A DNA stretch of 64,000 bases. Source: Parcubacteria group bacterium Gr01-1014_8. Lineage in GTDB: Bacteria > Patescibacteriota > Minisyncoccia > Phycocordibacterales > UBA2100. Location: the NCBI GenBank assembly GCA_007376385.1, contig VMGC01000005.1:64001-128000 (forward strand), in the 5' to 3' direction. Below, in pieces: positions 4,637 to 59,581 of this stretch. Under the pieces are notes generated by a model. The model saw nothing but the letters and a program-made list of their open reading frames with translations. It searched no databases and was not told the DNA's origin. Each line of letters begins with the position of its first letter. The stretch's first letter is position 1. A program made the translations under genes and the position numbers.

Positions 4637-4967
4637 AAGCAGGATCATGATCAACGAGGGGCTTAGCCTGATAAATGAGGCGCATTCATGTACGCCGGGG
4701 AGACCGTGCCCCCTCAGGCCGCACGATCTCCCCGGCTTACACGACCAACTTCGCATCAGAGTTGGCTGATACCTCGGGCGTCACCTGTGTCATAGGCTAG
4801 TATCGTCAACTGCTAATTTTGAGGCGACAGGTGCCGCAGAGACATAGATCCCTGCGGGTCTGTGCGCTCATAAAGGAACTAGCTCTCCGAACACTGTACA
4901 GAAAAGTTATGAACCATGTATGAAGAAAGACTTAGTTGATATTTTTTGCTGAATATCAGCGCTTGTA

Positions 4968-6885: not shown

Positions 6886-7003
6886 GATTTATTTGCGAGC
6901 GTTGCGAGTGAAACGCAAAAGAGCACTTTTGCATTTCCGAGCCGAGGAGCAAACACAGGTTCAATACCTCGGAGCAAGCTCCGAGGAACCTTTATTGCTT
7001 AAG
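6886..7003 (+). repeat. Intergenic structured repeat, family 1, copy 1 (~115 nt; also at 35134-35254 and, diverged, 59114-59222)
   Basis: Near-identical to 35134-35254. Contains TTGCGAG-CG-TTGCGAG, a GCAAAAG/CTTTTGC hairpin, CCGAGG..CCTCGG..CCGAGG alternative pairings, and an AGG-TTCAATA-CCT hairpin resembling a tRNA T-loop. Confidence 0.6.
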
Positions 7004-7774
7004 ACCTAGCCCTGTGCGGATGAAGTACCAATTGGCAGCAATGAGGATAGCCACTAACACTACAAGTATCGAGACTGACATGTAGAGGGAAACGTCAGTA
7101 ATGCCGAGGAATCCGTAGCGGAAACCGTTGATGAGGTAGAAAAGGGGATTTGCGTACGTTATCGCCTGCCACCAATCGGGAAGCGAATGGACCGAGTAGA
7201 AAATACCACCGAGGTAGACGAGTGGTGTCAGGAAGAATGTGGGGACGATGTTGATGCCATCGATCGTTTTCGCATAGATGCCGTTCACGAGTCCTGCGAG
7301 AGCGAAAACGAGTGCGGTGAGGAGGGCGAATCCTAGGATGACGAGGACGCTATGAATGGTGAGCGAGAGGCCAGTGAAAAAGAGTGACACCATAAGCACT
7401 AGTGCGCCGACGAGGATGCCGCGTATCACGCCTCCGCCAACAAAGCCAGCAATAAGAAGCCATGGCGGCGTAGGGGAGACGAGAATTTCATCGATCGAGC
7501 GTGCGAAGAATTTTGACGTAAAGAACATGAATGACGTATTCGCGTATGATGTTGTGACGATAGCGAGCATCACGAGACCGGGAACGACGAATGTCATGTA
7601 ATCGACACCTTGCATGTCACCAATACGGGAGCCAAGCACGGTTCCGAACACGAGAAAGTAGAGAGTGGAAGTGATAACGCTCGGAAGAAATGTCTGGACC
7701 CAAATGCGGAACATGCGGACAATGTCCTTTCGTATCATGGTGTAGAACGCGATCCATTTTTGGTAGGGAGTCAT
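6992..7774 (-). CDS. ABC-2 family transporter permease
   Basis: Six predicted TM helices in an ABC-2 type permease architecture. The start overlaps the upstream ORF stop by 4 nt. Confidence 0.8.
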   Translation of the reverse strand: MTPYQKWIAFYTMIRKDIVRMFRIWVQTFLPSVITSTLYFLVFGTVLGSRIGDMQGVDYMTFVVPGLVMLAIVTTSYANTSFMFFTSKFFARSIDEILVSPTPPWLLIAGFVGGGVIRGILVGALVLMVSLFFTGLSLTIHSVLVILGFALLTALVFALAGLVNGIYAKTIDGINIVPTFFLTPLVYLGGIFYSVHSLPDWWQAITYANPLFYLINGFRYGFLGITDVSLYMSVSILVVLVAILIAANWYFIRTGLGLKQ

Positions 7775-9286: not shown

Positions 9287-10684
9287 TTAATGTCCGGAGG
9301 TGTCCCATTCCTCGCCGACGCCCTTGAAGTGCGCGAGTTTTTCTCGGAAAAGCGCTTTTATTTTTTCGAGTGTATCATGGGTCTTTGCCTCGAAGCGAAG
9401 CACGAGTGTTGGTGTGTTCGAAGAGGCGCGGACAAGTCCCCAGCCGTCGTGTGCATAGACACGTGCGCCGTTTATATCAACGACCTTGTAGCCATCATGT
9501 TTGAACATCTTTACCAGCTCATCGACAATCTTGTATTTTTCCTCATCAGTCGTTTTGACTTGGATAGTCGGAGTGGCGATGTAATAGGGAGTCGTCGCGA
9601 CCAATTCCGAAAGCGTTTTCGTATGTGATGAAAGATATTCAAGCAGTTTGAGGGCGGCGAAGAACGCATCGTCAAACCCATAGAAATCATCGCCGAAGAA
9701 AATGTGTCCGCTCATTTCTCCGCCGAGCGCGGCATCCACTTCCTGTAGCTTCGCTTTGATATACGAATGTCCCGTTTTCCACATAATAGGGACGCCGCCG
9801 TGCATGGCAATATCTTCTGGAAGCGCTTGGGAGACTTTCACATCGAATACGATCTTGGATCCAGGTTTCTTTGCCAAAACCAATCGAGAAAGAAGCATAA
9901 GATAGCGATCTGGCCAAACGATATTACCTTTCTCGTCTACGACACCGAGCCTATCGCCATCACCGTCGAACGCGAGTCCGATGTCGCACGCGTTTTTCAA
10001 GACCTGCACGACGGTGTCGTTCATCATCGCTTCGCCATCCGGATTCGCTGTGTAATTCGGATAGCTTGGATCGACGTTTGTAAGATGTTCTACGATTTCG
10101 CAACCGGTTTTCCGGAATAATTCCGGCGCGAACATTCCCGCGGTGCCGTTCCCCGTATTTATCAGCACTTTTAGTTTTTTCTTGATTAATGTTCGACATA
10201 CGATGTCGGTCATATATTCCTTGGCTATGTCGTCCTTTCGAATGTTCGACATCGTATGTCGAACATAGTCCTCTTTTTCGATGATTGAATAGAGAGTTTT
10301 GATTTCGTCCGGGCCGAGGGTCTCGGAGAAATTAATTCCTAGCTTGAGGCCGTTCCACCCGGCAGGATTATGACTGGCCGTTATCATGCAGAGGCCACGC
10401 GCTTTGAAATGGTATTGCGCCCAGTAACTCATCGGGGTTGTGACCGTGCCGATGTCTATGATGTCCACGCCTGATTCCGCCAGGGCTTTTTTTGCCTGTG
10501 CTGCGAAACTTTCGGATGTCTCGCGCGCATCGTTTCCGACAACAGCGTTCGTGATATTCGCATCGCGAAGCATTTTTCCAAATCCTCTCGCGATGTGGTA
10601 TATGGAGTTCTCGTTCAGCTCGTCGTCCGATTCACGGCCGCGAATGTCGTATTCGCGGAACATTGTTTTTTTAAGAGAGGCCAT
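9287..10684 (-). CDS. Phosphoglucomutase/phosphomannomutase family protein
   Basis: Active-site TASHNPAGWNGLK, metal-binding DGDGDR, and the four-domain length of the alpha-D-phosphohexomutase family. Confidence 0.9.
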   Translation of the reverse strand: MASLKKTMFREYDIRGRESDDELNENSIYHIARGFGKMLRDANITNAVVGNDARETSESFAAQAKKALAESGVDIIDIGTVTTPMSYWAQYHFKARGLCMITASHNPAGWNGLKLGINFSETLGPDEIKTLYSIIEKEDYVRHTMSNIRKDDIAKEYMTDIVCRTLIKKKLKVLINTGNGTAGMFAPELFRKTGCEIVEHLTNVDPSYPNYTANPDGEAMMNDTVVQVLKNACDIGLAFDGDGDRLGVVDEKGNIVWPDRYLMLLSRLVLAKKPGSKIVFDVKVSQALPEDIAMHGGVPIMWKTGHSYIKAKLQEVDAALGGEMSGHIFFGDDFYGFDDAFFAALKLLEYLSSHTKTLSELVATTPYYIATPTIQVKTTDEEKYKIVDELVKMFKHDGYKVVDINGARVYAHDGWGLVRASSNTPTLVLRFEAKTHDTLEKIKALFREKLAHFKGVGEEWDTSGH

Positions 10685-22497: not shown

Positions 22498-22603
22498 ATC
22501 TAAGCAGCGCCGTTAGGCAAACCATAAGCGTCTCATCTTTGCGCGGAGCACTTTCCACCCTGCTCCCTTTCCTTAGGTGAAGAATTTCGAGCACGATCAA
22601 ATA

Positions 22604-22633
22604 CCTTAAGTGTGCCGACCGGCACACTTAAGG
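22604..22633. promoter_or_regulatory. 14-bp perfect palindrome CCTTAAGTGTGCCG-AC-CGGCACACTTAAGG in divergent promoter region
   Basis: A perfect inverted repeat with no flanking T-run, so not a typical terminator. It lies between the divergent dedA-like gene and the cupin PGI/sugar cluster, so it is a candidate operator. Confidence 0.4.
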
Positions 22634-22893
22634 TATTTATGTGGGTATACTCTCGGGAAAACAATCTATCTATTCTATTTTCAAGTATTGCAGTATCTTT
22701 TGAAGTTTTTCGTCTTCGATGCGGGCAAGACGCATTTGCAGCTCTTGTATTTCTTTTTTTTCTGCCAGGTTGCAGGCCTCCATTGTATAGGGGCATTATA
22801 GGCCTGTCGCTGCAAGGGGGGATAGTCACAGGGGTTCATATCCACGCGCGCATGGATTTTTTTGAAACAAAGCCAGGTATACTGGAGGATACT

Positions 22894-27847: not shown

Positions 27848-28006
27848 ATGGCGGAAATAGCATATTGCGTAAAGTGCAAGCAAAAGAGGGAGATGAAGGA
27901 TGCGAAGGAGGTATCGTTTGCCGGGAAAGGAGGCAATCAACGCCGAGCGATGCAAGGCATATGTCCGGTGTGCGGAACAAAGATGTTTAAGATACTGGGG
28001 AAATAA
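27848..28006 (+). CDS. Small zinc-ribbon protein (52 aa, CxxC...CxxC)
   Basis: MAEIAYCVKCKQKREMKDAKEVSFAGKGGNQRRAMQGICPVCGTKMFKILGK. Two CxxC pairs. It ends 8 nt before a strong rho-independent terminator. Confidence 0.45.
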   Translation: MAEIAYCVKCKQKREMKDAKEVSFAGKGGNQRRAMQGICPVCGTKMFKILGK

Positions 28007-28013
28007 AGGTTCC

Positions 28014-28365: not shown

Positions 28366-28484
28366 CACCACACGGGTACTTCCATTTCACTAACATCGGG
28401 GTACCGATGAAGTGAAATTGGTCGCACCACACGGGTACTTCCATTTCACTAACATCGGGGTACCGATGAAGTGAAATTGGTCGC
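28366..28484 (+). repeat. Tandem direct repeat (2 x 59 nt) of a nested-hairpin element in the glnA leader
   Basis: The unit CACCACACGGGTACTTCCATTTCACTAACATCGGGGTACCGATGAAGTGAAATTGGTCG is repeated head-to-tail. Each unit folds as CATTTCACT..(CATCGG-GGTA-CCGATG)..AGTGAAAT. It lies ~95 nt upstream of glnA. Confidence 0.6.
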
Positions 28485-28577: not shown

Positions 28578-30017
28578 ATGAATAATACTAAGAACTCCCT
28601 CAAGGATTTTCTTGAGATCCCGTACCAGAAGCTTGAACAGATGAATGTGAAAGCAAAGGAGCGAGCGGAGAAAGCGACAGATAAAGAATTGGAAAAAGAA
28701 TATACGGCATGGCTAAAAAGGGAAAAAGGCATCAAAGCAGTAACGCTTTGTTTCTCCGACATCGAAGGCAGGCTTCACATGCTGGACTATGACAAAAAGT
28801 TCCTCTTGGATTCTCTCTCGAACCTGACGTTCGACGGCTCGTCGATCCGCGGATTTACTCCCCAGCATGAGTCCGACTTGCGGCTTGAAGTAGATTGGTC
28901 AAGCATACGCTACTTTCCCTCAGACGTGTTCGGACCCGGTAAAGTCATCTTCTTTGCGTCAGTCTTGAACAGAGATAGGACACCCTACTTCTCTGACTTC
29001 AGGGGCCGATTGAAAGCATACACAGCCTCCCTCAAGAAAAAGGATGGGCTCACCGCATATGCTGCTCCCGAGATCGAAGGATTTCTCGTAGATGAAACAA
29101 ACAGCGAACAAAATTACCGTATTCACGGCGGCTTTAAATTGGTATCGACTGGAGGCTACTTTCACTCACTGCCGATGGACCCCCTGCGTGTTTTTATAGA
29201 CAACGCTGCGGAAGCGCAAAGAGCAATGGGCTTTAAGAATGAGAAAGACCACCCCGAAGTCGCACCCTCACAGTTTGAAATGAACTTCTCCTACGCGGAA
29301 GTCGTGCGCGCGGCAGACAACATCCAGCTCTACAAACTCGTCTGTAGGCAAGTGGCGCGCAACATGGGACTCACTGCTTCGTTCTTGCCCAAACCCTTTA
29401 CCGGCATCAATGGCTCCGGTATGCACACGAACTTTTCGCTTGCAAAAAATGGAAGGAACATCTTCTACGACCCGAAGGGCCAGGACGGTCTTTCCAAGAT
29501 CGCGTGGGACATGATAGCGCGCCTCCTCAATCACGCGCCGGAAATATGCCTCATCCTGAACTCCTCGGTGAACAGCTATCGCCGGCTTGACCCGCACTTC
29601 GAGGCGCCGAACCAGATCAAAGTCTCGCCTATTGATCGCGGTTCGATGATACGTATCCCGATAGGAAACGAGAGAACCGCACGCATCGAGCTTAGGTCCG
29701 TCGCGCCGGATGCGAACCCGTACCTCGTCTTGTTCACGATGTTGAAGGTGGGGCTGGAAGGAAAAAAGCTCGAAAGGGACGCAAACAAACGCGACCGCAT
29801 CCGTTTTCTTCCCGACAATGCCTACGACGCGATTTCCCTCTTCAAGGCGAGTAAATTCCTGACAGAGGCGCTCGGCGAGGAAAGCAAGGACAAATTCGCC
29901 GCTTACAAACAAAACGCCGCTGACCGTTCTCCGAAAGCTCTCGGCGCAATTATCAAGGATTCGGAAATAATTTATCACCACGAGGTAACCAACCAATATC
30001 TATGGAACAACTTTTAG
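28578..30017 (+). CDS. glnA: Glutamine synthetase (type I-like)
   Basis: GS catalytic motifs KPF.GINGSGMHTNFSL, NSYRRL and PDANPY, at ~479 aa. Confidence 0.85.
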   Translation: MNNTKNSLKDFLEIPYQKLEQMNVKAKERAEKATDKELEKEYTAWLKREKGIKAVTLCFSDIEGRLHMLDYDKKFLLDSLSNLTFDGSSIRGFTPQHESDLRLEVDWSSIRYFPSDVFGPGKVIFFASVLNRDRTPYFSDFRGRLKAYTASLKKKDGLTAYAAPEIEGFLVDETNSEQNYRIHGGFKLVSTGGYFHSLPMDPLRVFIDNAAEAQRAMGFKNEKDHPEVAPSQFEMNFSYAEVVRAADNIQLYKLVCRQVARNMGLTASFLPKPFTGINGSGMHTNFSLAKNGRNIFYDPKGQDGLSKIAWDMIARLLNHAPEICLILNSSVNSYRRLDPHFEAPNQIKVSPIDRGSMIRIPIGNERTARIELRSVAPDANPYLVLFTMLKVGLEGKKLERDANKRDRIRFLPDNAYDAISLFKASKFLTEALGEESKDKFAAYKQNAADRSPKALGAIIKDSEIIYHHEVTNQYLWNNF

Positions 30018-31422: not shown

Positions 31423-31424
31423 CC

Positions 31425-32045
31425 CTATAAACCTCCGGCGTTAGCCGGAGTGTACGTTTGAAGGCGAAGCCGTATGCTAAAGCCGTCCGGCAGGACGGCT
31501 TTAGCAATAACCATACGCATGTCATCACACAAACGTACAATACGCACATTATCACACTGCTTTTACGACCTGAAATACCATCTGGTATGGACACCAAAGT
31601 ACCGAGGAAAGGTACTGACAGCACAGAAGGTGAAAGATGAGTTGCGGAGAATCTTCGAGACAATCTGCAAGTGGAAACACTGGGAAGTCATCGAACTGAA
31701 CATTCAAGACGATCACGTACACTTCTGCATCCTCACGACACCGAGAGACTCCATCTCATATACCATGCAAATACTGAAGGGGAAGTCGTCTGCTTGGCTC
31801 AAGAAGAAGATCAAACGGGCACACGGTCTGTACGAAAAAGAATCTCTGTGGGCGAGGGGTTACTTTGTCTCTACGATCGGCATCGACGAGCACCTCATAC
31901 GTCGGTACATCAAGCATCAACACCATCACAATCAAACAGACCAACCAAGTCTGTTTGACAAGCTGCTCTCTTAACAACCGCGGCCGCCCTGCCGGCGTAG
32001 CCGGCAAATACAAAGCCACCGGACCCCAGTCCGGTGGTCGTTTAC
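31425..32045 (+). mobile_element. IS200/IS605-family insertion sequence (tnpA only)
   Basis: Sub-terminal hairpins upstream (CTCCGGC-GTTA-GCCGGAG 31433-31450; GCTAAAGCCGTCC-GGCA-GGACGGCTTTAGC 31476-31505) and downstream (GCCGGC-GTA-GCCGGC 31991-32005; CACCGGAC-CCCA-GTCCGGTG 32017-32036) of a Y1 HUH transposase gene. Confidence 0.7.
31519..31974 (+). CDS. tnpA: IS200-like Y1 (HUH) transposase TnpA
   Basis: HUH motif DDHVHFCI, plus ..YDLKYHLVWTPKYR.. and the catalytic Tyr region (..ISYTMQILKGKSS..). Start placed at the internal Met. Confidence 0.85.
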   Translation: MSSHKRTIRTLSHCFYDLKYHLVWTPKYRGKVLTAQKVKDELRRIFETICKWKHWEVIELNIQDDHVHFCILTTPRDSISYTMQILKGKSSAWLKKKIKRAHGLYEKESLWARGYFVSTIGIDEHLIRRYIKHQHHHNQTDQPSLFDKLLS

Positions 32046-33427: not shown

Positions 33428-34471
33428 ATGCTTGTTGATGATGTCACCATAAAACTCTCTGGGGGCAACGGCGGTCCGGGCATCGTCGGCTTCAATCGCA
33501 CTAAAGGAAACACGGGTCCGACAGGCGGTAACGGGGGCCCTGGCGGCGATGTCATTCTTGAAGGCATTTCGGATATCAGCGCGCTTCTTCAATTCAGATT
33601 TAACAAAGATTTCAAAGGCGAAGATGGCAAGCAAGGCACAACGCGTCTGCGCGACGGCACGCGCGGTGAGGATTTGATATTGAAAATTCCGACGGGAACG
33701 GTCATCACGAATCTCGACACAGGCTGGACGCATGAACTGACGAAGGAGGGCGAGCACGTTATGGTCGCAAAAGGCGGCTATCGCGGCCGTGGAAATTTCC
33801 ACTTCCGCGCATCGACGAATACGACGCCGATGGAAGCCGAGACGGGCGAACTCGGAGAGAGTTTTACATTCCGCCTTGAACTCAAGATGATCGCCGACGT
33901 GGGTCTTATCGGTATTCCGAACGCAGGCAAATCGTCGCTTCTCAACGAACTGACCGGCGCGCACTCGAAGATAGGGAATTACGCGTTCACGACACTCGAG
34001 CCGCACCTCGGCGCATACTACGGGCTCATTCTTGCAGACGTGCCGGGTCTTATCGAAGGTTCGTCGGAAGGCAGGGGCTTGGGAGACAGATTCTTGCGCC
34101 ACATCGAACGCACGCGCGTCCTCTTTCATTTAGTGTCTGCGGAATCAGACGATGTCGTACGCGATTACAAAATAGTGCGGCAGGAATTGCAGGCCTATAA
34201 TCCTGCGCTCACAAAAAAAGAGGAGTATGTGTTTTTGACGAAGGTTGACCTCGTGGATGGTAAGGACGCGGAAGCAAAATTGAGGTTATTGAAGAAGATG
34301 AACAAGAATGCGCTCGCGCTCTCGGTCATCGAAGATAAGCGGATGAGGGCGGTGAAAGACATTCTCAACACGTTCCTAAAAGAAAAGAAGGTGGCTCCCC
34401 CTGGGACCACACTTGGATTTTCTGAAGCGGGAGTACCCGCTAAGAAAATCTCGGCGGTCGATGACAAATGA
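33428..34471 (+). CDS. obg: GTPase Obg/CgtA
   Basis: Gly-rich Obg fold (GGNGGPG..) followed by a G-domain (GIPNAGKSSLLN, DVPGLIEG). The last ~18 codons are supplied by a copy of repeat family 2. Confidence 0.9.
   Translation: MLVDDVTIKLSGGNGGPGIVGFNRTKGNTGPTGGNGGPGGDVILEGISDISALLQFRFNKDFKGEDGKQGTTRLRDGTRGEDLILKIPTGTVITNLDTGWTHELTKEGEHVMVAKGGYRGRGNFHFRASTNTTPMEAETGELGESFTFRLELKMIADVGLIGIPNAGKSSLLNELTGAHSKIGNYAFTTLEPHLGAYYGLILADVPGLIEGSSEGRGLGDRFLRHIERTRVLFHLVSAESDDVVRDYKIVRQELQAYNPALTKKEEYVFLTKVDLVDGKDAEAKLRLLKKMNKNALALSVIEDKRMRAVKDILNTFLKEKKVAPPGTTLGFSEAGVPAKKISAVDDK
34405..34460 (+). repeat. Hairpin repeat family 2, copy 1 (inside obg 3' end)
   Basis: GACCACACTTGGATTTTCTGAAGCGGGAGTACCCGCTAAGAAAATCTCGGCG. 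Homologous to 52449-52517 (same orientation) and 52936-52999 (inverse). Confidence 0.6.
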
Positions 34472-35159
34472 ACCGACAGTGATTTTTGAGAACGACGATT
34501 TTCTCGTCATCAATAAACCGGCCGGGCTCATCGTGCACTCGGACGGAAGGACGATAGAGCCGTCGCTCGCCGACTGGCTCATCGCGCGCTCCCCCGCGCT
34601 ACAAGAGGTCGGCGAGCCATGGGTGTCGCCGCAAGGAGAAAAAATTGCGTGCCCTGGTCTTGTGCATCGTTTGGATAGAACAACATCGGGTGTGATGGTT
34701 GTGGCGAAAACACAGGCGATGTGGAAATACCTGCGCGCAGAATTTAAAGAGCGGCGTGTCGAAAAGAAATATCACGCATTTGTCTACAGTCATGTGGAGG
34801 GGAGTTCTGGTCGGATTGTTTCTGAAATCATGAGGTCGTCTACGCCTCCTAAAAAATGGTATGCACGGCCATGCGACGAAAGCCACAAGCGAGCAGCCAT
34901 AACGGATTGGACGCTTTTGAAAAAGCTCGAAGATAACGGCGAGCTCATTTCGTATCTCGAAGTTCAGCCTCGTACCGGCCGCACGCATCAGATACGCGTG
35001 CATCTTGCATCTATCGGGTATCCTATAGTCGCGGACCATCTGTACTCCGACAAGAAGCCACTTTTAGGATTCACGCGCCCGGCGCTTCATGCACACAGTA
35101 TTTCATTCATGCTGCCGTCAGTAGAAAACCGGGAATTTATTTGCGAGCGTTGCGAGTGA
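34461..35159 (+). CDS. RluA-family pseudouridine synthase
   Basis: Catalytic motif HRLDRTTSGVMVVAK and ..FLVINKPAGL... Overlaps the obg stop by 11 nt. Confidence 0.85.
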   Translation: MTNEPTVIFENDDFLVINKPAGLIVHSDGRTIEPSLADWLIARSPALQEVGEPWVSPQGEKIACPGLVHRLDRTTSGVMVVAKTQAMWKYLRAEFKERRVEKKYHAFVYSHVEGSSGRIVSEIMRSSTPPKKWYARPCDESHKRAAITDWTLLKKLEDNGELISYLEVQPRTGRTHQIRVHLASIGYPIVADHLYSDKKPLLGFTRPALHAHSISFMLPSVENREFICERCE

Positions 35160-35254
35160 AATGCAAAAGAGCACTTTTGTATTTCCGAGTCGAGGAGCAA
35201 ACACAGGTTCAATACCTCGGAGCTTGCTCCGAAGAACCTTTATAGCGCCACCAC
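35134..35254 (+). repeat. Intergenic structured repeat, family 1, copy 2
   Basis: ~95% identical to 6886-7003. It supplies the last codons (FICERCE*) of the RluA-like gene. The substitutions relative to copy 1 keep the GCAAAAG hairpin intact via a G-U wobble. Confidence 0.6.
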
Positions 35255-41049: not shown

Positions 41050-42861
41050 TTGTGGGATGATGCGCTGATGGATTTTGGTCGCAAGTCAATAGGGGACATG
41101 CTAAACGGGATGGCTCGGTACCGAGTCCCAAAATACCAGCGCTCCTTTACCTGGGGTACAAACCAAGTCTCAGATTTTTGGAGAGACCTTTGTGAAGCAG
41201 ATGAGAGAGAAGGATTCTTTCTCGGGACCATGATATTGCATAAGGATAGAGAGGGGGTAGAGGTGGAAAATCTCAAGAATATTGTTGATGGACAACAGAG
41301 AATGACCGCCGCAAGTTTATTATTGCTCGCATGCAGGAATCACTCGTCAAGAAGGAACCGAGACAGGGCTGCTGCACTTGATCAAACTCTGATGTTTCGT
41401 GATATCGCTACTGGAAGAGCGGAAACGCTCAGACTTGAGGTCGCTCCAGACATTCTAGATGCTTTTCGTCACATGGTGACTGCTAGGCAGTGGGATGAAC
41501 AAACTTTTCCAGACGAAGTAGATGGCCGAGTCGCCAGACGAATAAAGTCTATTTATAAGTATTTCAAGCAGCAGGTAGACGAACTATCAGATGCAGAGCT
41601 CTCGTCCTTACTTAATAAATTGTTGAATTCATACTTTCTTGTGATAGAAATTGAAGATATCACACAGGCTTTTGAGCTTTTTGAACGAACAAATGCGCGA
41701 GGAACTCCGCTGAATGCAGGAGAGTTGCTCAAGAACAGACTGTTTGCAGAGGCGCAGGAGAAAGAAATTGTAGAAGGCGAATGGGAGGAGATTGTTTCTA
41801 ACTCTAATGGGATGCTACTGCGAATGTTGAAGTATTTTGCAGCTCTTAAGCACGGGCAAGAAACGGGTCGGACGGTTTTGTATCGACATCTGCGTGGTCA
41901 AGTTGAATCGGACACACCGAGCCAGTTCATCCACGATTTGAGCGCTTTCTCTTCATATTTTGGAAAGTTCTTGGACAACAAACTTCAAGCCGCACCATTT
42001 ATTGATCGAAATTCTGATAAGTCATTCGAATTTCTCTTCATTGATGAGATTGCTTTTAAAAAGTTTGGTCGCAGCATGAGTGCGATATCTCTTTTTGGTG
42101 TCTACATTGTCCTTCCCGTTGTTTTCGCTGGCCTAAAAGGGCTATCGAAATTGAAAGACAAAAGCGGATTTAGACCCGCGTTGAAAGATTTTCTAAATCT
42201 TCTAGGTACGATGGAGTGTTTCCATTTTATCAATAATCAGATATGTACACGTCCCTCGAATCGTGCCGAGTCACTATATGCAAGTAAAACAAATGTGTTG
42301 GCGACAGCGGAGACATGCGCACAGTTCAGAGAGGTAATAAAGCAGATATCAAAAGGACTCAAGGAGATAAAGGTCGCTAATAAGGAAGAGTTCCTACTTA
42401 ATTTTACTGGACTTTCATATACGAGTCCTGCAAGCGATAAGCCTCTCTTTGCATACGTCTTTGATAGATTTGAATCCTCTCCATTCGCGTCAGCAGCACC
42501 TGTAACCATATTTGATCCGTCAGCTAATTACAGCCTGAACCGCGTATTCGAAGTTGAACACATTACCCCTCGAGCAATGTGGGGCAATTTATATCCGGAA
42601 GATGATTTGGTCAACAATATCGGTAATTTACTCATCCTAACGCAGGAGACTAATAGGCTTGTAGATACCAAACCATTGCCGGATAAGATTCGAATAATGA
42701 AGGAACGAGGCTACGACAATTTAAGTACCGTTCAACAATTTTCTAAAAAGTTCGAGGATAAGGAACTCAAGTGGTTACGTCCGACAGACATAACAGAGCG
42801 ATCTGTCGCAATGGCAGCTCAAGGCTACAGTGATATTTGGGATCCATGGCCGAATGATTGA
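41050..42861 (+). CDS. DUF262/DUF1524 (GmrSD-like) modification-dependent type IV restriction endonuclease
   Basis: N-terminal DUF262 motifs (..RYRVPKYQRSFTW.., IVDGQQRMTA). C-terminal DUF1524 His-Me finger (EVEHITPRAMW....NIGNLLILTQETN). Confidence 0.75.
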   Translation: MWDDALMDFGRKSIGDMLNGMARYRVPKYQRSFTWGTNQVSDFWRDLCEADEREGFFLGTMILHKDREGVEVENLKNIVDGQQRMTAASLLLLACRNHSSRRNRDRAAALDQTLMFRDIATGRAETLRLEVAPDILDAFRHMVTARQWDEQTFPDEVDGRVARRIKSIYKYFKQQVDELSDAELSSLLNKLLNSYFLVIEIEDITQAFELFERTNARGTPLNAGELLKNRLFAEAQEKEIVEGEWEEIVSNSNGMLLRMLKYFAALKHGQETGRTVLYRHLRGQVESDTPSQFIHDLSAFSSYFGKFLDNKLQAAPFIDRNSDKSFEFLFIDEIAFKKFGRSMSAISLFGVYIVLPVVFAGLKGLSKLKDKSGFRPALKDFLNLLGTMECFHFINNQICTRPSNRAESLYASKTNVLATAETCAQFREVIKQISKGLKEIKVANKEEFLLNFTGLSYTSPASDKPLFAYVFDRFESSPFASAAPVTIFDPSANYSLNRVFEVEHITPRAMWGNLYPEDDLVNNIGNLLILTQETNRLVDTKPLPDKIRIMKERGYDNLSTVQQFSKKFEDKELKWLRPTDITERSVAMAAQGYSDIWDPWPND

Positions 42862-43321
42862 TGCAGCATTAATCAAACAGAAGACAAGGTACTTACGGGA
42901 CGGCCGGGCCCCGATTCCGAAAAGTGAAAAAATCTCTCGCACGATGAGTGCGATAAGAGCAAAGAACACGAAGCCCGAGTTACTTGTTCGCAAGGTTTTC
43001 CGAAAAGTAGGAATACGCGGATATCGATTGCATTGGAATAAAGTAGCCGGACGACCGGATATTGTGTTCCCTAAGAAAAAAGTCGCTGTGTTTGTTCACG
43101 GCTGTTACTGGCACGGATGTCCACATTGCAAACTTACACTCCCGAAAACGCATCGAGCATTTTGGCGTGCAAAGTTCAAGAGAAACAAGGAAAGAGACGC
43201 TCATAAGACAAAAGACCTGCGGAAATTAGGATGGCGTGTACTTACCGTGTGGGAGCACCAAATAAAGAAAGATGCGGATCAAATCGCTGCACGCGTCGTG
43301 AAGGCTCTTCGTGACGCTTGA
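42854..43321 (+). CDS. vsr: Very-short-patch-repair endonuclease
   Basis: ..SRTMSAIRAKNTKPE..GRPDIVFPKKKVAVFVHGCYWHGC..WEHQIKKD.., the Vsr catalytic core. Start codon uncertain (42854 or 42944). Confidence 0.85.
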   Translation: MIDAALIKQKTRYLRDGRAPIPKSEKISRTMSAIRAKNTKPELLVRKVFRKVGIRGYRLHWNKVAGRPDIVFPKKKVAVFVHGCYWHGCPHCKLTLPKTHRAFWRAKFKRNKERDAHKTKDLRKLGWRVLTVWEHQIKKDADQIAARVVKALRDA

Positions 43322-44648
43322 TGCTCTGCAAAAGTGCACGGCCTATTTCTTCAATGATTCCGACGACAAGTGCGTTACCCATGAAGAACGCTCGTTTTAC
43401 GTCGGAAATGTCGTCATATGCGGTATGGCGAGCAGGGAATTGGCATAATAACTCTAACTCTGTTGGGGTAAGTCGGCGGTATTTTCCGGACTTTGTTTTT
43501 ACAACATGCTTGAATCGCGAGGGTGCGGGCCCTCCCTCTCCTGTAATTATCGTGCGGGAAGGTTTATCCAAAGCATCCGGAAAAGTCATTGGACCCTCTG
43601 CGTAGTGATAAGTGAATCCATCTGTCCCATGGCGCTCTTCCTTTTTAGCACCCTTGAGATATTTCCACTCTTTTAGTGAGCCGTTGATAAAATATTCTTC
43701 GGCGACTTTGTGTTCCGGAAGTAGAATATCACCGAGAGTAATGAAAGGGCCACCGTATTTTGGAGTTACGCGAGCGGTTGTGATCCGACCGTCACTCATG
43801 ACCCCAGCATTCGCAAAATCTATATCGTCCGGGAACAATTGTTCAAAGTCTCTCGTTATTCTGACGGGATCATCAGCGACATCGTGTCTCGCGAATCTTG
43901 AAATTTCATCTTCGACTGCGAGTCGTTGCGCGAAAACTCCTTCTTTTGTCAGCCAATTGATCGCGTCAGTCGAACGTAGCGCATTTGCAATACCGGTTCC
44001 ATTCTTGAACGCGAGAATAAAGATCCGGCGCCTGCGCTGTGGTTTTCCGTAATCAGCTGCATTGATAACGCGCCATTCGACGACATATCCGAGGTTTGCG
44101 AGCGAAGCGAGCATGATCGCAAAATCACGACCGCGGGCAGATGCTGGGGACTTTAATAATCGGTCAACGTTCTCTAGGAACACATAGGGAGCAGAGTCCT
44201 TGTGTCCTTTTTCTTGAAGAATGCGATAGATCTGCCACCAGAGAACGCCTTTCTTTCCCTGGAGTCCCGCAGCTTGGCTCAACGTTCGTGCAACCGAATA
44301 ATCCTGACAAGGAAATCCTCCGACAAGAACATGATGGTCCGGGATGTCACCTGTTGCGACGGTCGCGATATCTTGATTACTGTGTCCTTTGCTGCCAAAA
44401 CGTGCCCGGTACACCTCGGATGCGTGCTGGCGTTTCGTTGATGGCTCCCACTGATTACTCCAGATGGTCTCGAATTTCAGACCTGCTCTCGCCGCTTCCT
44501 TTTTTGATGCTTGGTCGAGTCCGAGACGAAATCCTCCCACCCCTGCGAACAATTCAATGACCTTAAGTGGCACCGCTTGTCGATCGTCTTTTTTGAGCGT
44601 ATGTTTGGCTAGTTTCCCCATAGCTAAATCGTACCAAGGAATATCCAT
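43242..44648 (-). CDS. dcm: DNA (cytosine-5)-methyltransferase
   Basis: Motif I ELFAGVGGFRLG, motif IV GGFPCQDYS, motif VI FLENV, plus a target-recognition domain. Overlaps vsr at its 3' end (convergent). Confidence 0.9.
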   Translation of the reverse strand: MDIPWYDLAMGKLAKHTLKKDDRQAVPLKVIELFAGVGGFRLGLDQASKKEAARAGLKFETIWSNQWEPSTKRQHASEVYRARFGSKGHSNQDIATVATGDIPDHHVLVGGFPCQDYSVARTLSQAAGLQGKKGVLWWQIYRILQEKGHKDSAPYVFLENVDRLLKSPASARGRDFAIMLASLANLGYVVEWRVINAADYGKPQRRRRIFILAFKNGTGIANALRSTDAINWLTKEGVFAQRLAVEDEISRFARHDVADDPVRITRDFEQLFPDDIDFANAGVMSDGRITTARVTPKYGGPFITLGDILLPEHKVAEEYFINGSLKEWKYLKGAKKEERHGTDGFTYHYAEGPMTFPDALDKPSRTIITGEGGPAPSRFKHVVKTKSGKYRRLTPTELELLCQFPARHTAYDDISDVKRAFFMGNALVVGIIEEIGRALLQSIKRHEEPSRRVQRFDPHLSLFGAPTR

Positions 44649-44681
44649 TTGATCAAGATCGAGTTATCCACTGTCTGCCAT

Positions 44682-51554: not shown

Positions 51555-51566
51555 AACACAGAAAGC

Positions 51567-51604
51567 AAAAAGCGCCCCGCCTAAAGAGGCGGGGCGCTTC
51601 GTTT
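51567..51604. terminator. Rho-independent terminator (AGCGCCCCGCC-TAAAGA-GGCGGGGCGCT), bidirectional
   Basis: GC-rich 11-bp stem flanked by an A-run and a T-run. An inverse copy lies at 52395-52438. Confidence 0.65.
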
Positions 51605-51611
51605 GAGATGA

Positions 51612-52283
51612 TTAAAGACCGATCTCTACTTCTGTCGAACCTTCCATCTTCGTTTTACTTCCTGCTTCTGCACTCGAACCTCCTTCTGCATGCGCCGATG
51701 TCTCGCTTTTGACGGTGGCCGGACCGACGTGAATGTCAGCTGTTCCGTCGCCGTTCACGTCGCCCGCTGTGACATTGATGTCAGCGGTACCATCGCCGCT
51801 GACGTCCCCTGCGGCGACACCTGCGCGAGCCCGGATGTTCTGGATGATGTTCTTGAGGCTTGTGTGGGCTTCTGCTGAAGCACTGCCTTTCACGTTCGTT
51901 TCGACATTGCTGAATGCGTTGATAGCAGTGTTGATGCGCGTAAGGACCGATACCGCAGCTTCCGTCTTGCCGGACGTGCTAAGTTCGTTGGCTGCTTGAA
52001 GCGCGGCTTCTGCATGCGACGAAAATTCTGCTCCCAATTCTGCAGCAACGTCAGCATCCAATTCGCCGCGGGCGCTAAGTTCTGCGGCTTCTTGCAAGCG
52101 GCGTTCGGTAACGCGTGCTTGCCAGTTCGCTTCTGCTTCGCTCGAAACCGTAAGTGCAGCACGGACGTTTTCGTTCACCGACGTTTTCATGCCGTAGAGG
52201 ACGTCTCCCGGGACAGCATTTTCGGCGGCAAAAGAGGCTCCGCCTCCAAGTGCCAAGATCACTACTAGAATGATTGCAATCAT
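51612..52283 (-). CDS. Hypothetical secreted protein (DUF5667-like N-terminus)
   Basis: Signal peptide. ..PGDVLYGMK..EN.. N-terminal motif and an Ala/Glu-rich helical segment. Confidence 0.5.
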   Translation of the reverse strand: MIAIILVVILALGGGASFAAENAVPGDVLYGMKTSVNENVRAALTVSSEAEANWQARVTERRLQEAAELSARGELDADVAAELGAEFSSHAEAALQAANELSTSGKTEAAVSVLTRINTAINAFSNVETNVKGSASAEAHTSLKNIIQNIRARAGVAAGDVSGDGTADINVTAGDVNGDGTADIHVGPATVKSETSAHAEGGSSAEAGSKTKMEGSTEVEIGL

Positions 52284-52394: not shown

Positions 52395-52438
52395 AAAAAG
52401 AAAGCGCCCCGCCTCTTTAGGCGGGGCGCTTCTTTCTT
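52395..52438. terminator. Rho-independent terminator, inverse copy of 51567-51604
   Basis: Same stem AGCGCCCCGCC with the loop inverted (TCTTTA), flanked by an A-run and a T-run. Confidence 0.6.
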
Positions 52439-52448
52439 GACCGGCACG

Positions 52449-52517
52449 TGGCTCGCTTACGCGGCCACACTTGGATTTTCTAAAGCCGGCATACGCCCGC
52501 TTTAGAAGATCTCGGCG
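52449..52517 (+). repeat. Hairpin repeat family 2, copy 2 (immediately 3' of csp)
   Basis: GGCTCGCTTACGCGGCCACACTTGGATTTTCTAAAGCCGGCATACGCCCGCTTTAGAAGATCTCGGCG. It forms an inverted pair with 52936-52999. Confidence 0.6.
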
Positions 52518-52935: not shown

Positions 52936-52999
52936 CGCCGAGATTTTCTTAGCGGGTACGCCCGCTTTAGAAAATCCAAGTGTGGTCGCGAAGCGAGCC
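52936..52999 (-). repeat. Hairpin repeat family 2, copy 3 (inverted; upstream of csp)
   Basis: Reverse complement of the 52449-52517 / 34405-34460 element. The spurious ORFs 52826..53014 and 34195..34467 share the peptide AEIFLAGTPA(L/S)ENPSVV because of it. Confidence 0.6.
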
Positions 53000-54450: not shown

Positions 54451-54696
54451 AGAGGTGTTTGCTCGGCATGTGTTTGCAGCCGCTGGTGTCCGGCGCTGCA
54501 CATTCGGTCTGTTGCTCTTAGTACTTCCTACATTCAGCCTACTGGCTTCAGTATTTCCTCGTTCTTCACTTGGTCATCGCTCTGCGCTCGGCAGGCTGCA
54601 TACCTTAGTGGTGCCGACCGGCACCACTAAGGTATGCGTTCTTTGCGGGGATATCTTTCTTGTTTGGGGCATCGTACGCCTGCTACTGTTACTGGG

Positions 54697-58421: not shown

Positions 58422-58512
58422 TCAAGAGTCTCTGCATAGAGCTCAAATCCAAAATACCATAATGGTGCCGGTCGGCACCATTATGGTATTTCGTTTTTCA
58501 TGGTGAGAAGCG

Positions 58513-59113: not shown

Positions 59114-59222
59114 CCTTTATTGGCGAGCGTTGCGAGCGAAGCGAAAATGTATTCATTTTCATTTTCGAGCCGAGGAGCCAACATAGGGTCGAATACCCCG
59201 CGGTATGAATACCCTTTATTTT
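59114..59222 (+). repeat. Intergenic structured repeat, family 1, diverged copy 3
   Basis: TTTATTGGCGAGCGTTGCGAGCGAAGCGAAAATG-TATT-CATTTTC..GAGCCGAGGAGCCAACATAGGG-TCGAATA-CCC. It keeps the direct repeat and both hairpins with different stem sequences, i.e. compensatory changes. Confidence 0.5.
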
Positions 59223-59581
59223 AAGAGCCTGTCGATAGCATCAATGATGCCTTGTGCTGATTCATCTGATTTCACTACGTAGCCGCGGATACCGAGCGCC
59301 ATTCCTTCCGCGATGTTATCCATTGAAGACACGTTGGAGGTAATGAGTACAGGCGTTTTACCCTCGCCGTATTTTTTGTTCAGTTCCTTCAGGAATTGGA
59401 GGCCGTCCATTCCAGGCATCTTGATATCAAGAAGGATGCCGTCGGGCTGTGATTCGCTCATTTTTTGCAGCCCCTCGCTTCCGTCACTCGCACATACCAC
59501 TTCGTACTCTGCGCTGTCCAGCTCTCCTTTCATGAGACTCTTGAAAGTCTCGTCATCATCGATAATAAGTATTTTCTTCAT
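59216..59581 (-). CDS. Orphan single-domain response regulator (CheY-like)
   Basis: ILIIDDDE..D..LLDIKMPGMDG..K.. Confidence 0.85.
   Translation of the reverse strand: MKKILIIDDDETFKSLMKGELDSAEYEVVCASDGSEGLQKMSESQPDGILLDIKMPGMDGLQFLKELNKKYGEGKTPVLITSNVSSMDNIAEGMALGIRGYVVKSDESAQGIIDAIDRLLK

Follow-up and report, generated by a model that had tools for sequence, protein, structure and literature searches.

What kind of genetic unit is a structured repeat of about 100 nt that occurs three times, always on the same strand, in a short stretch of a bacterial genome? We asked this of a 64,000-nt stretch (the window) of contig VMGC01000005.1, positions 64,001 to 128,000, from Parcubacteria group bacterium Gr01-1014_8, in which the initial annotation had described three copies of an element of about 115 nt and suggested a small-RNA gene family, a mobile element resembling short interspersed nuclear elements (SINEs) or repetitive extragenic palindromic (REP) sequences, or transcript-end signals. 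The window has a G+C content of 51%, and the closest relatives of the source, a metagenome contig of 189,832 bp, are Candidatus Kaiserbacteria. A repeat search confirmed the three copies on the + strand (6887-6998, 35135-35246 and 59115-59226), the second being 94% and the third 63% (ungapped) identical to the first; across the first 85 nt, copy 3 is about 80% identical to copy 1 (BLASTN). Three further copies are known outside the window, namely one in a Kaiserbacteria metagenome-assembled genome (L028), a related one from another metagenome (L031), and a distant one in a related genome (L036). We consider it probable that these repeats are a palindrome-associated transposable element (PATE) of about 100 nt, a non-autonomous "peel-and-paste" element of the IS200/IS605 type of insertion sequences (IS), which is probably mobilized by a transposase of the IS200/IS605 type such as the TnpA encoded in the window.

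That the family is a mobile insertion element is very likely. Copy 2 lies inside the 3' end of an RluA-like pseudouridine synthase gene (34413..35159, Pfam PF00849), nine codons before the original stop. As the initial annotation had recognized, the element gives this gene its ending: the protein now terminates in …ENREFI-CERCE*, of which the last five codons and the stop are supplied by the element, and directly after copy 2 the old frame picks up again (A-P-P-P-K-D-F-R-stop). In silico removal of 103 nt from copy 2 yields the tail …ENREFIAPPPKDFR (FIAPPPKDFR), and two orthologues that are 65% identical have the homologous tails …FIAPLPEDFEKAL and …YIAPLPTDFERAL (also given as …NQKFIAPLPEDFEKAL and …AYIAPLPTDFERAL). 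Virtual excision of exactly 103 nt leaves GAATTTATAGCGCC, a comparison made at the protein level and with the 65%-identical orthologues rather than with an empty allele. Because excision restores the orthologous RluA tail, the original empty site can be reconstructed as GAATTTAT/AGCGCC, the slash marking the point of insertion. Additionally, other assemblies contain contigs that break off within the first few bases of the element at the sites of copy 1 (L033), copy 3 (L052), and the L031 copy (L030), as repeats break short-read assemblies. Since copy 2 interrupts a gene and contigs break in the element, the mobile nature suggested by the initial annotation holds, whereas the specific assignment to SINEs or REP sequences does not, as discussed below.

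The other copies are likewise found at gene ends. The right-hand TTTAT of copy 1 holds the TAA stop codon (6992-6994, minus strand) of an ABC-2 permease gene (6992..7774), and the terminal TTTAT of copy 3 holds that (59216-59218, minus strand) of a response-regulator gene (59216..59581). In both cases the native stop is contained in ATAAA, which is the right-hand TTTAT read on the minus strand. Both genes that adjoin copy 1, and likewise those that adjoin copy 3, run antisense to the element. The L031 and L028 elements are located immediately 3' of the stop codon of a gene on the same strand. The position at gene ends can be explained by the insertion-tolerant TTTAT/ATAAA sites, which in a genome with 51% G+C lie at stop codons and in short spacers; because TTTAT sites lie there, copies are able to supply or replace stop codons.

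Alignment defines the boundaries of the element. When the window copies are aligned with each other and with L031, similarity begins directly 3' of a TTTAT and ends with a TTTAT, which delimits an element of 153 nt in L031 and of the lengths listed in Table 1 in the window. The left flank is TTTAT in five of the six copies (copies 1 to 3, L031, and L036), and the right end is TTTAT in four (copies 1 to 3 and L031); in L036, the right end reads GATA before TTTCAT. We found no terminal inverted repeats, as the left 30 nt and the reverse complement of the right 30 nt are no more similar than shuffled sequences (p = 0.33-0.93), and on this basis a classical DDE-dependent miniature inverted-repeat transposable element (MITE) was rejected. 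More generally, a non-autonomous element might be moved by another system that has a strong preference for TTTAT and either duplicates 5 bp or recombines at a 5-bp core. This would agree with the TTTAT direct repeat that flanks four copies, and with element ends that are unrelated in sequence to those of the resident IS200-type element. However, the terminal inverted repeats that DDE-type MITEs need are not present, the 5-mer is identical at every independent insertion, the two junction 5-mers of L028 differ from each other, and apart from TnpA neither a DDE transposase nor a recombinase is seen in the gene tables or the Pfam scans of the window. We therefore regard mobilization by such a system as unlikely.

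The transposase in question belongs to a resident, complete-looking IS200-type element (Table 1), whose tnpA gene lies 3 kb upstream of copy 2. The protein scores 118.6 bits on the Pfam model PF01797 (Y1_Tnp) and 127 bits on the NCBIfam IS200/IS605 transposase model NF033573 (cutoff 55), and it carries an HUH motif (HVH) as well as RGYF with the catalytic tyrosine. The resident IS sits between an ammonium transporter and an AI-2E permease gene; in relatives without tnpA, for example L037, the ammonium transporter, AI-2E permease, and Obg genes are adjacent, which identifies the resident IS as an insertion. Its ends were defined from 12 independent insertions of relatives with 82-85% identical transposases, plus L037. 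On the left, the flank in this IS family is always TTAC, followed by 10 bases and a 7-bp hairpin with a 4-nt loop; on the right, AAAG or AACG precedes a 9-bp hairpin with a 4-nt loop, TCGY, and TTAC. The same TTAC motif is thus present at both junctions, and the right guide pairs with it as in IS608. The left flank of the resident copy reads TTTG compared to the TTAC of the family. A left guide following the IS608 rule is not obvious even in this bona fide IS family.

A Y1 transposase in the same window as hairpin-bearing, intergenic repeats would also be expected if the repeats were REP sequences or REPINs served by a domesticated REP-associated tyrosine transposase (RAYT). On the REP-associated model NF047646, however, TnpA reaches 35 bits with a cutoff of 80, compared to the 127 bits on the IS200/IS605 model, and these scores effectively refute a REP/RAYT system. 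In agreement with this, relatives of TnpA are encoded by ordinary IS, which occur in multiple copies and have defined ends at many sites, and the element itself is 100 nt long and asymmetric, is not a pair of 20-40-nt palindromes, and does not flank the transposase gene. A REP-type repeat is accordingly very improbable.

The element and the resident IS, which has relatives in other groundwater Patescibacteria, share the genome, the strand, and the use of one motif at both junctions. Their right ends follow the same layout, with an A-rich guide, a G+C hairpin of 8-9 bp with a 4-nt loop, 4-5 nt, and the motif; in the element, this corresponds to AATA, an 8-bp hairpin with a 4-nt loop, AACC(T), and TTAT. 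The left hairpin has 7 bp and a 4-nt loop in both. They differ in the motif (TTTAT in the element, TTAC in the IS) and in the left spacing (22 nt in the element, 10 nt in the IS), and there is no detectable sequence similarity, so that the element is not a deletion derivative of the resident IS. In the literal sense, then, the element is not a fragment of a longer known IS, the finding that the initial annotation had named as evidence against its proposal; its anatomy, however, is that of the non-autonomous relatives of this IS family.

The cut sites of IS608 lie at distances of 19 nt from the left and 10 nt from the right hairpin. In the element, 17-22 nt separate the presumed left cut from its hairpin, and 9 nt the presumed right cut. 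The guide sequences of IS608 read their cleavage motifs by base pairing, GL AAAG reading TTAC and GR GAAT reading TCAA (PMC5934647). We deduced the rule G1:C-3, G2:C-4, and G4:C-1 from the pairings and from the GL/CL and GR/CR sequences in that paper (PMC5934647). According to this rule, the AATA that directly precedes the right hairpin of copies 1 and 2 matches TTAT. In L031, AATA stands before the inner, first hairpin and GATA (G.T with TTAT) before the terminal one. The right third of the element as a whole varies: it opens with ACAnGGTTCAATACC, one or two G+C hairpins unrelated in sequence follow, and GGAACCTTTAT forms the end. The 3' hairpins of copy 3 are unlike those of the other copies in sequence. 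In the right hairpin, copy 1 has the loop CAAG (6975-6978) and copy 2 the loop CTTG (35223-35226), the central AA being replaced by its complement TT; a CTTG loop recurs in the left hairpin of L028 and L036 and in a hairpin of L031.

This anatomy resembles that of PATEs, transposase-less derivatives of IS200/IS605 elements known from Haloquadratum (PMC3119063) and Geobacillus stearothermophilus (PMC10055086), for which the absence of inverted repeats, near-terminal palindromes, the lack of a target duplication, and a longer 5' spacing were given as hallmarks (PMC3119063). Like PATEs, the element is too short for a protein-coding gene, has no terminal inverted repeats, carries palindromes near its ends with the longer spacing on the 5' side, and has a left-flank motif of 4-5 nt. 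Its copies are heterogeneous and most variable outside the conserved hairpins, as in PATEs. It differs from them in that no parent IS with matching ends was found, in that its two hairpins are unlike each other, in the extra covarying helix P1 that closes the left domain and takes in the base 5' of the cut, and in its host, a Kaiserbacteria-like bacterium of the candidate phyla radiation. With IS608 and ISDra2, members of the IS200/IS605 family that transpose by single-strand peel-and-paste through a Y1 HUH TnpA, the element shares a position 3' of a short T-rich motif, subterminal hairpins, and, in copies 1 and 2, a putative right-hairpin guide complementary to the cleavage motif, whereas it contains neither tnpA nor tnpB, has TTTAT/TTTAT instead of TTAC/TCAA ends, and has no confidently assignable left guide. 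Classical bacterial MITEs and small repeats such as Correia/NEMIS, RUP, ERIC, and Rickettsia RPE elements also measure about 100 nt, lie at gene ends, can enter coding sequences, and supply stops. Terminal inverted repeats are a feature of at least Correia, RUP, and ERIC, and variable target duplications of those that derive from transposons; the element described here has neither. TTTAT itself is the target motif of ISGst2, an IS605-family element (PMC10055086). It was proposed that one TnpA can mobilize elements with different motifs, since the motif is read by the DNA of the element and not by the protein (PMC10055086).

Judged from these similarities, a Y1 HUH transposase acting in trans would bind both subterminal hairpins of the element when the + (top) strand is single-stranded. 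It would cut 3' of the flanking TTTAT on the left and 3' of the terminal TTTAT of the element on the right, releasing a single-stranded circle and resealing the donor without a scar, and the circle would then be pasted 3' of another TTTAT. The predicted junction of right and left ends in this circle is …GGAACCTTTAT/TTGCGAGCG…, and a parent IS200/IS605 element would carry the ends TTGCGAGCGTTGCGAG… and …GGAACCTTTAT. We infer a single-stranded intermediate and the use of TTTAT as target and element end rather than as a duplication. Features expected of such an element are present, as it is too short for a transposase gene (99-153 nt), has subterminal hairpins with asymmetric spacing, and occurs in a genome with a Y1 HUH transposase. 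An exact 13-mer of the right tip of copy 1, GAGGAACCTTTAT, occurs alone on the minus strand directly after a terminator hairpin, and its 11-nt core GGAACCTTTAT is exact; it may be a right-end remnant, although 0.76 matches to the core with one mismatch allowed are expected in the window by chance. In L031, a piece similar to the 3' tip of copy 3 (4820-4860, minus strand; …CCGCGGTATGAATACCCTCTAT) lacks the left domain and may be a decayed or right-end-only copy.

Table 1 Coordinates of the repeat copies, their structural parts, and the resident IS200-type element in the window.
Feature	Position	Strand	Description
Copy 1, left flank	6888..6892	+	TTTAT, read directly; proposed target/transposon-adjacent motif
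Copy 1, element	6893..6995	+	103 nt; terminal TTTAT 6991-6995
Copy 1, left-end domain	6892..6953	+	P1 6892-6896/6949-6953; P2 6910-6921/6926-6937, loop AGCA; from folds and pair counts
Copy 1, right end	6963..6995	+	AATA 6963-6966; hairpin CCTCGGAG-CAAG-CTCCGAGG 6967-6986; AACC; TTTAT; predicted cut 9 nt past the stem
Copy 2	35136..35243	+	Flank TTTAT 35136-35140; 103-nt element 35141-35243
Copy 3	59116..59219	+	Flank TTTAT 59116-59120; 99-nt diverged element 59121-59219
Solo right-tip 13-mer	28001..28013	minus	Exact GAGGAACCTTTAT
Resident IS200-type element	31423..32045	+	Boundaries from insertions of relatives
IS left hairpins	31433-31450 and about 31476-31505	+	
tnpA	31519-31974	+	Intact, 151 aa from ATG 31519; annotated from 31474
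IS right end	32012-32045	+	AAAG 32012-32015; hairpin 32016-32037; TCGT; TTAC 32042-32045; canonical …TCGTTTAC

The left two thirds of the element form a conserved domain, which we analyzed in the six copies. The initial annotation had noted a 7-bp hairpin that varies in sequence yet stays paired; this proved to be the core of a 12-bp stem, P2. Structure-preserving changes are also found in a second helix of 5 bp, P1, which reads TTTGC/GCAAA, TTGGC/GCCAA, or CTGGC/GCCAG, and TCTGC/GCAGG in L036. The first pair of P1 uses the last T of the flanking TTTAT in copy 1; it joins the nucleotide immediately 5' of the presumed cut to one located 3' of the hairpin, and is T-A in the majority of copies, with C-G in L028 and T.G in L036. 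In copy 1, P1 encloses P2 together with the conserved strands GAGCGTTGCGAG and CGAGCCGAGGA. Both sides have changed at three of the five P1 pairs and four of the twelve P2 pairs; over the six copies, 96% of cells are paired with seven pairs changed on both sides, which none of 500 shuffles matched, and the covariation is lost when the partner strand is slid along the alignment. This alignment was fitted to the model and the sample of six copies is small. The internal strands GAGCGTTGCGAG and CGAGYCGAGGA are invariant between genomes. In the right third, the outer stem shows one compensatory change (AGGTT/AACCT to AGGGT/ACCCT). A direct repeat TTGCGAG-CG-TTGCGAG had been attributed to all copies, which applies to copies 1 and 2, whereas the first half differs in copy 3 (TGGCGAG). 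Alternative switch stems from CCGAGG..CCTCGG..CCGAGG had been proposed for copies 1 and 2; the sequence is exact in copy 1 only, with TCGAGG and CCGAAG in copy 2. These stems were rejected, as they are unconserved beyond copies 1 and 2 and CCTCGG is missing from copy 3 and L031.

Conserved structure of this kind raises the question of whether the repeats are primarily structured RNAs, for example a small-RNA family, a 3'-untranslated or transcript-end element, or a guide-RNA-like scaffold, with their spread being secondary. The two covarying helices and the internal-loop strands that are invariant across genomes would be expected of such RNAs, and the predicted folds beat shuffled sequences (z = -2.1 to -4.4). 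A terminator-like hairpin followed by a U-rich tail is present in copy 1, and copy 2, L028, and L031 follow a stop codon on the same strand. However, folds are more stable than shuffles on both strands and both as RNA and as DNA, the minus-strand and DNA folds being on a par with those of the plus-strand RNA. The initial annotation had argued for RNA function in the plus orientation from substitutions between copies 1 and 2 that preserve pairing through G-U wobbles on the plus strand alone. In fact, these changes create one G.U on the plus strand, in P2, and one C.A on the plus strand, in the 3' hairpin, and the latter is a G.U on the minus strand. Counted across all copies, wobbles are distributed about 3 against 4 between the strands, so that the asymmetry on which the argument rested does not exist.

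Searches for RNA signatures were mostly negative. In Rfam 15, the whole window gave no hit at the gathering score, and sensitive scans of copy 1, copy 3, and L031 returned sub-threshold hits (14 bits or less) to different unrelated families each time; no family could thus be assigned to it. As for the transcript-end signals considered initially, a simple terminator scan was passed by copy 1 on the + strand and failed by copies 2 and 3, and no promoter-like site was found upstream of any copy. In addition, copies 1 and 3 are antisense to both neighbours and copy 2 lies within a coding sequence. Taken together, these results make a primarily RNA-based identity quite improbable.

A hairpin resembling a tRNA T-loop was a further part of the initial description, and the segment GGTTCAATACC/GGGTCGAATACCC does resemble a T arm in three copies. 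From GGTTCAATACC, one might derive a tRNA-related, SINE-like retroelement. The proposed hairpin, however, has a stem of 3 bp in the window copies and 1 bp in L031, is absent in L028, and competes with the better supported long 3' hairpin, in which the same bases take part and which carries the compensatory change described above. ARAGORN finds no tRNA in the window, Rfam neither tRNA nor tmRNA, and the gene tables contain no reverse transcriptase. We consider a SINE-like origin hardly credible.

Several observations weigh against the assignment to PATEs and have to be set beside the evidence in its favour. No autonomous IS200/IS605 element with related ends was found: neither end of the resident IS, nor of its relatives, is significantly similar to the ends of the element (p > 0.4), and genome, metagenome, and viral pattern scans for the left end recovered only short elements and no autonomous one. 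The link to a parent IS by which a PATE is defined is thus missing. Left-end guide candidates (GAAA/AAAC, AAAT, AAGC, and AAAA) fit the pairing rule only partly, the right end of copy 3 is non-canonical and misfits it, and left and right hairpins are dissimilar, unlike in IS608. L028 keeps the left domain with the junctions CCTAC (left) and TTTAC (right), and the constant TTTAT on both sides, which fits a target motif plus element end, would look alike after a 5-bp duplication at a strict target. Moreover, GAGCGTTGCGAG/CGAGYCGAGGA seem to be conserved beyond the apparent need of hairpin recognition, and neither these invariant internal strands nor helix P1 are explained by a simple PATE model. 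In the window, the G-rich + strand carries all three copies as well as tnpA (4/4), as expected if the top strand lies on the lagging-strand template; this is weak support, and among the outside copies L028 agrees, L036 disagrees, and L031 shows no skew. Finally, the sample is small, with three of the six known copies outside the window. It is conceivable, albeit rather doubtful, that the P1 domain represents a novel way of presenting the cleavage site that lets TnpA move unrelated ends, or a functional RNA borne by the element (a guide-RNA-like or regulatory scaffold) in a lineage of the candidate phyla radiation.

The element family is rare. With a covariance model of the 5' domain, the three window copies reach 94-105 bits (E 1e-26 to 1e-30), and the window contains no fourth match; the three copies lie within about 73 kb of source contig, and no new copy was found beyond the window. 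Scanning 185,579 species genomes with a 26-base pattern of the left end gave 29 matches, of which 28 are chance matches in high-G+C genomes and one, L028, is real. The same approach yielded one site on two contigs in JGI metagenomes and no match in the viral scan, and BLASTN against plasmids and phages was also without a match. Six-frame peptides of the element had no match, as read-through open reading frames, among 5.8 billion proteins. In about 200 kb from eight related genomes, retrieved via Obg homologues, we found one distant copy (L036, 39 bits), and no element was found beside homologues of TnpA. The three further loci are all in Kaiserbacteria-like contigs. Literature searches returned no description of small non-autonomous repeats or PATE-like elements in bacteria of the candidate phyla radiation.

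The window contains further repeats and features. A second repeat family forms a long hairpin of about 50 nt (CCACACTTGGATTTTCT.AAGC…GCT.AGAAAATCTCGGCG) at 34407-34456 and 52465-52517 (+) and, inverted, at 52937-52990. One of its copies forms the 3' end of obg; since Obg has 347 aa in the window compared to 320-323 aa in about 120 homologues, the repeat seems to have been inserted into the end of this gene. Upstream of obg in L036, a 295-nt spacer contains three tandem-spaced CAAAGGGTTACCCTTTG palindromes (9890-9960, minus strand), which adjoin the distant element copy at 9789-9867. Three near-perfect palindromes of 36-40 nt at gene ends (22599-22638, 54600-54635, and 58452-58491; AAATACCTTAAGTGTGCCGACCGGCACACTTAAGGTATTT and variants) could be bidirectional terminators or another REP-like family. 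The gene 51612..52283 lies between two near-identical G+C-rich palindromic, terminator-like hairpins at 51563-51604 and 52397-52438 (AAAGCGCCCCGCC…GGCGGGGCGCTT). About 95 nt upstream of glnA (28578..30017), a 59-nt hairpin-containing unit is perfectly duplicated in tandem (28366-28483); it has no Rfam match and could be a regulatory site or an assembly artefact. A defence-type cluster at about 41050-44650, encoding a GmrSD-like nuclease, a Vsr-like endonuclease, and a C-5 cytosine DNA methylase, lies in the part of the window with the lowest G+C content (0.46-0.47) and is probably a horizontally acquired island.

Overall, the most fitting reading of the element is a new member of an established class of mobile DNA; on present evidence it is not an RNA gene family. 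Bacteria of the candidate phyla radiation have small genomes, and the window contains what looks like an active pair, an intact IS200-type transposase and a family of gene-less elements by which the 3' ends of genes are rewritten: RluA is truncated by one copy, two others lie on stop codons, and the second hairpin repeat extends Obg. For annotation, this accounts for odd C-terminal extensions, for breaks in short-read contigs, and for structured repeats that look like RNA and are not RNA genes. Being about 100 nt long, with TTTAT at either junction and a left end that is compact and covaries, the element would be a convenient minimal substrate for transposition, which could show how far the ends of IS200/IS605 elements are read as shape as opposed to sequence.

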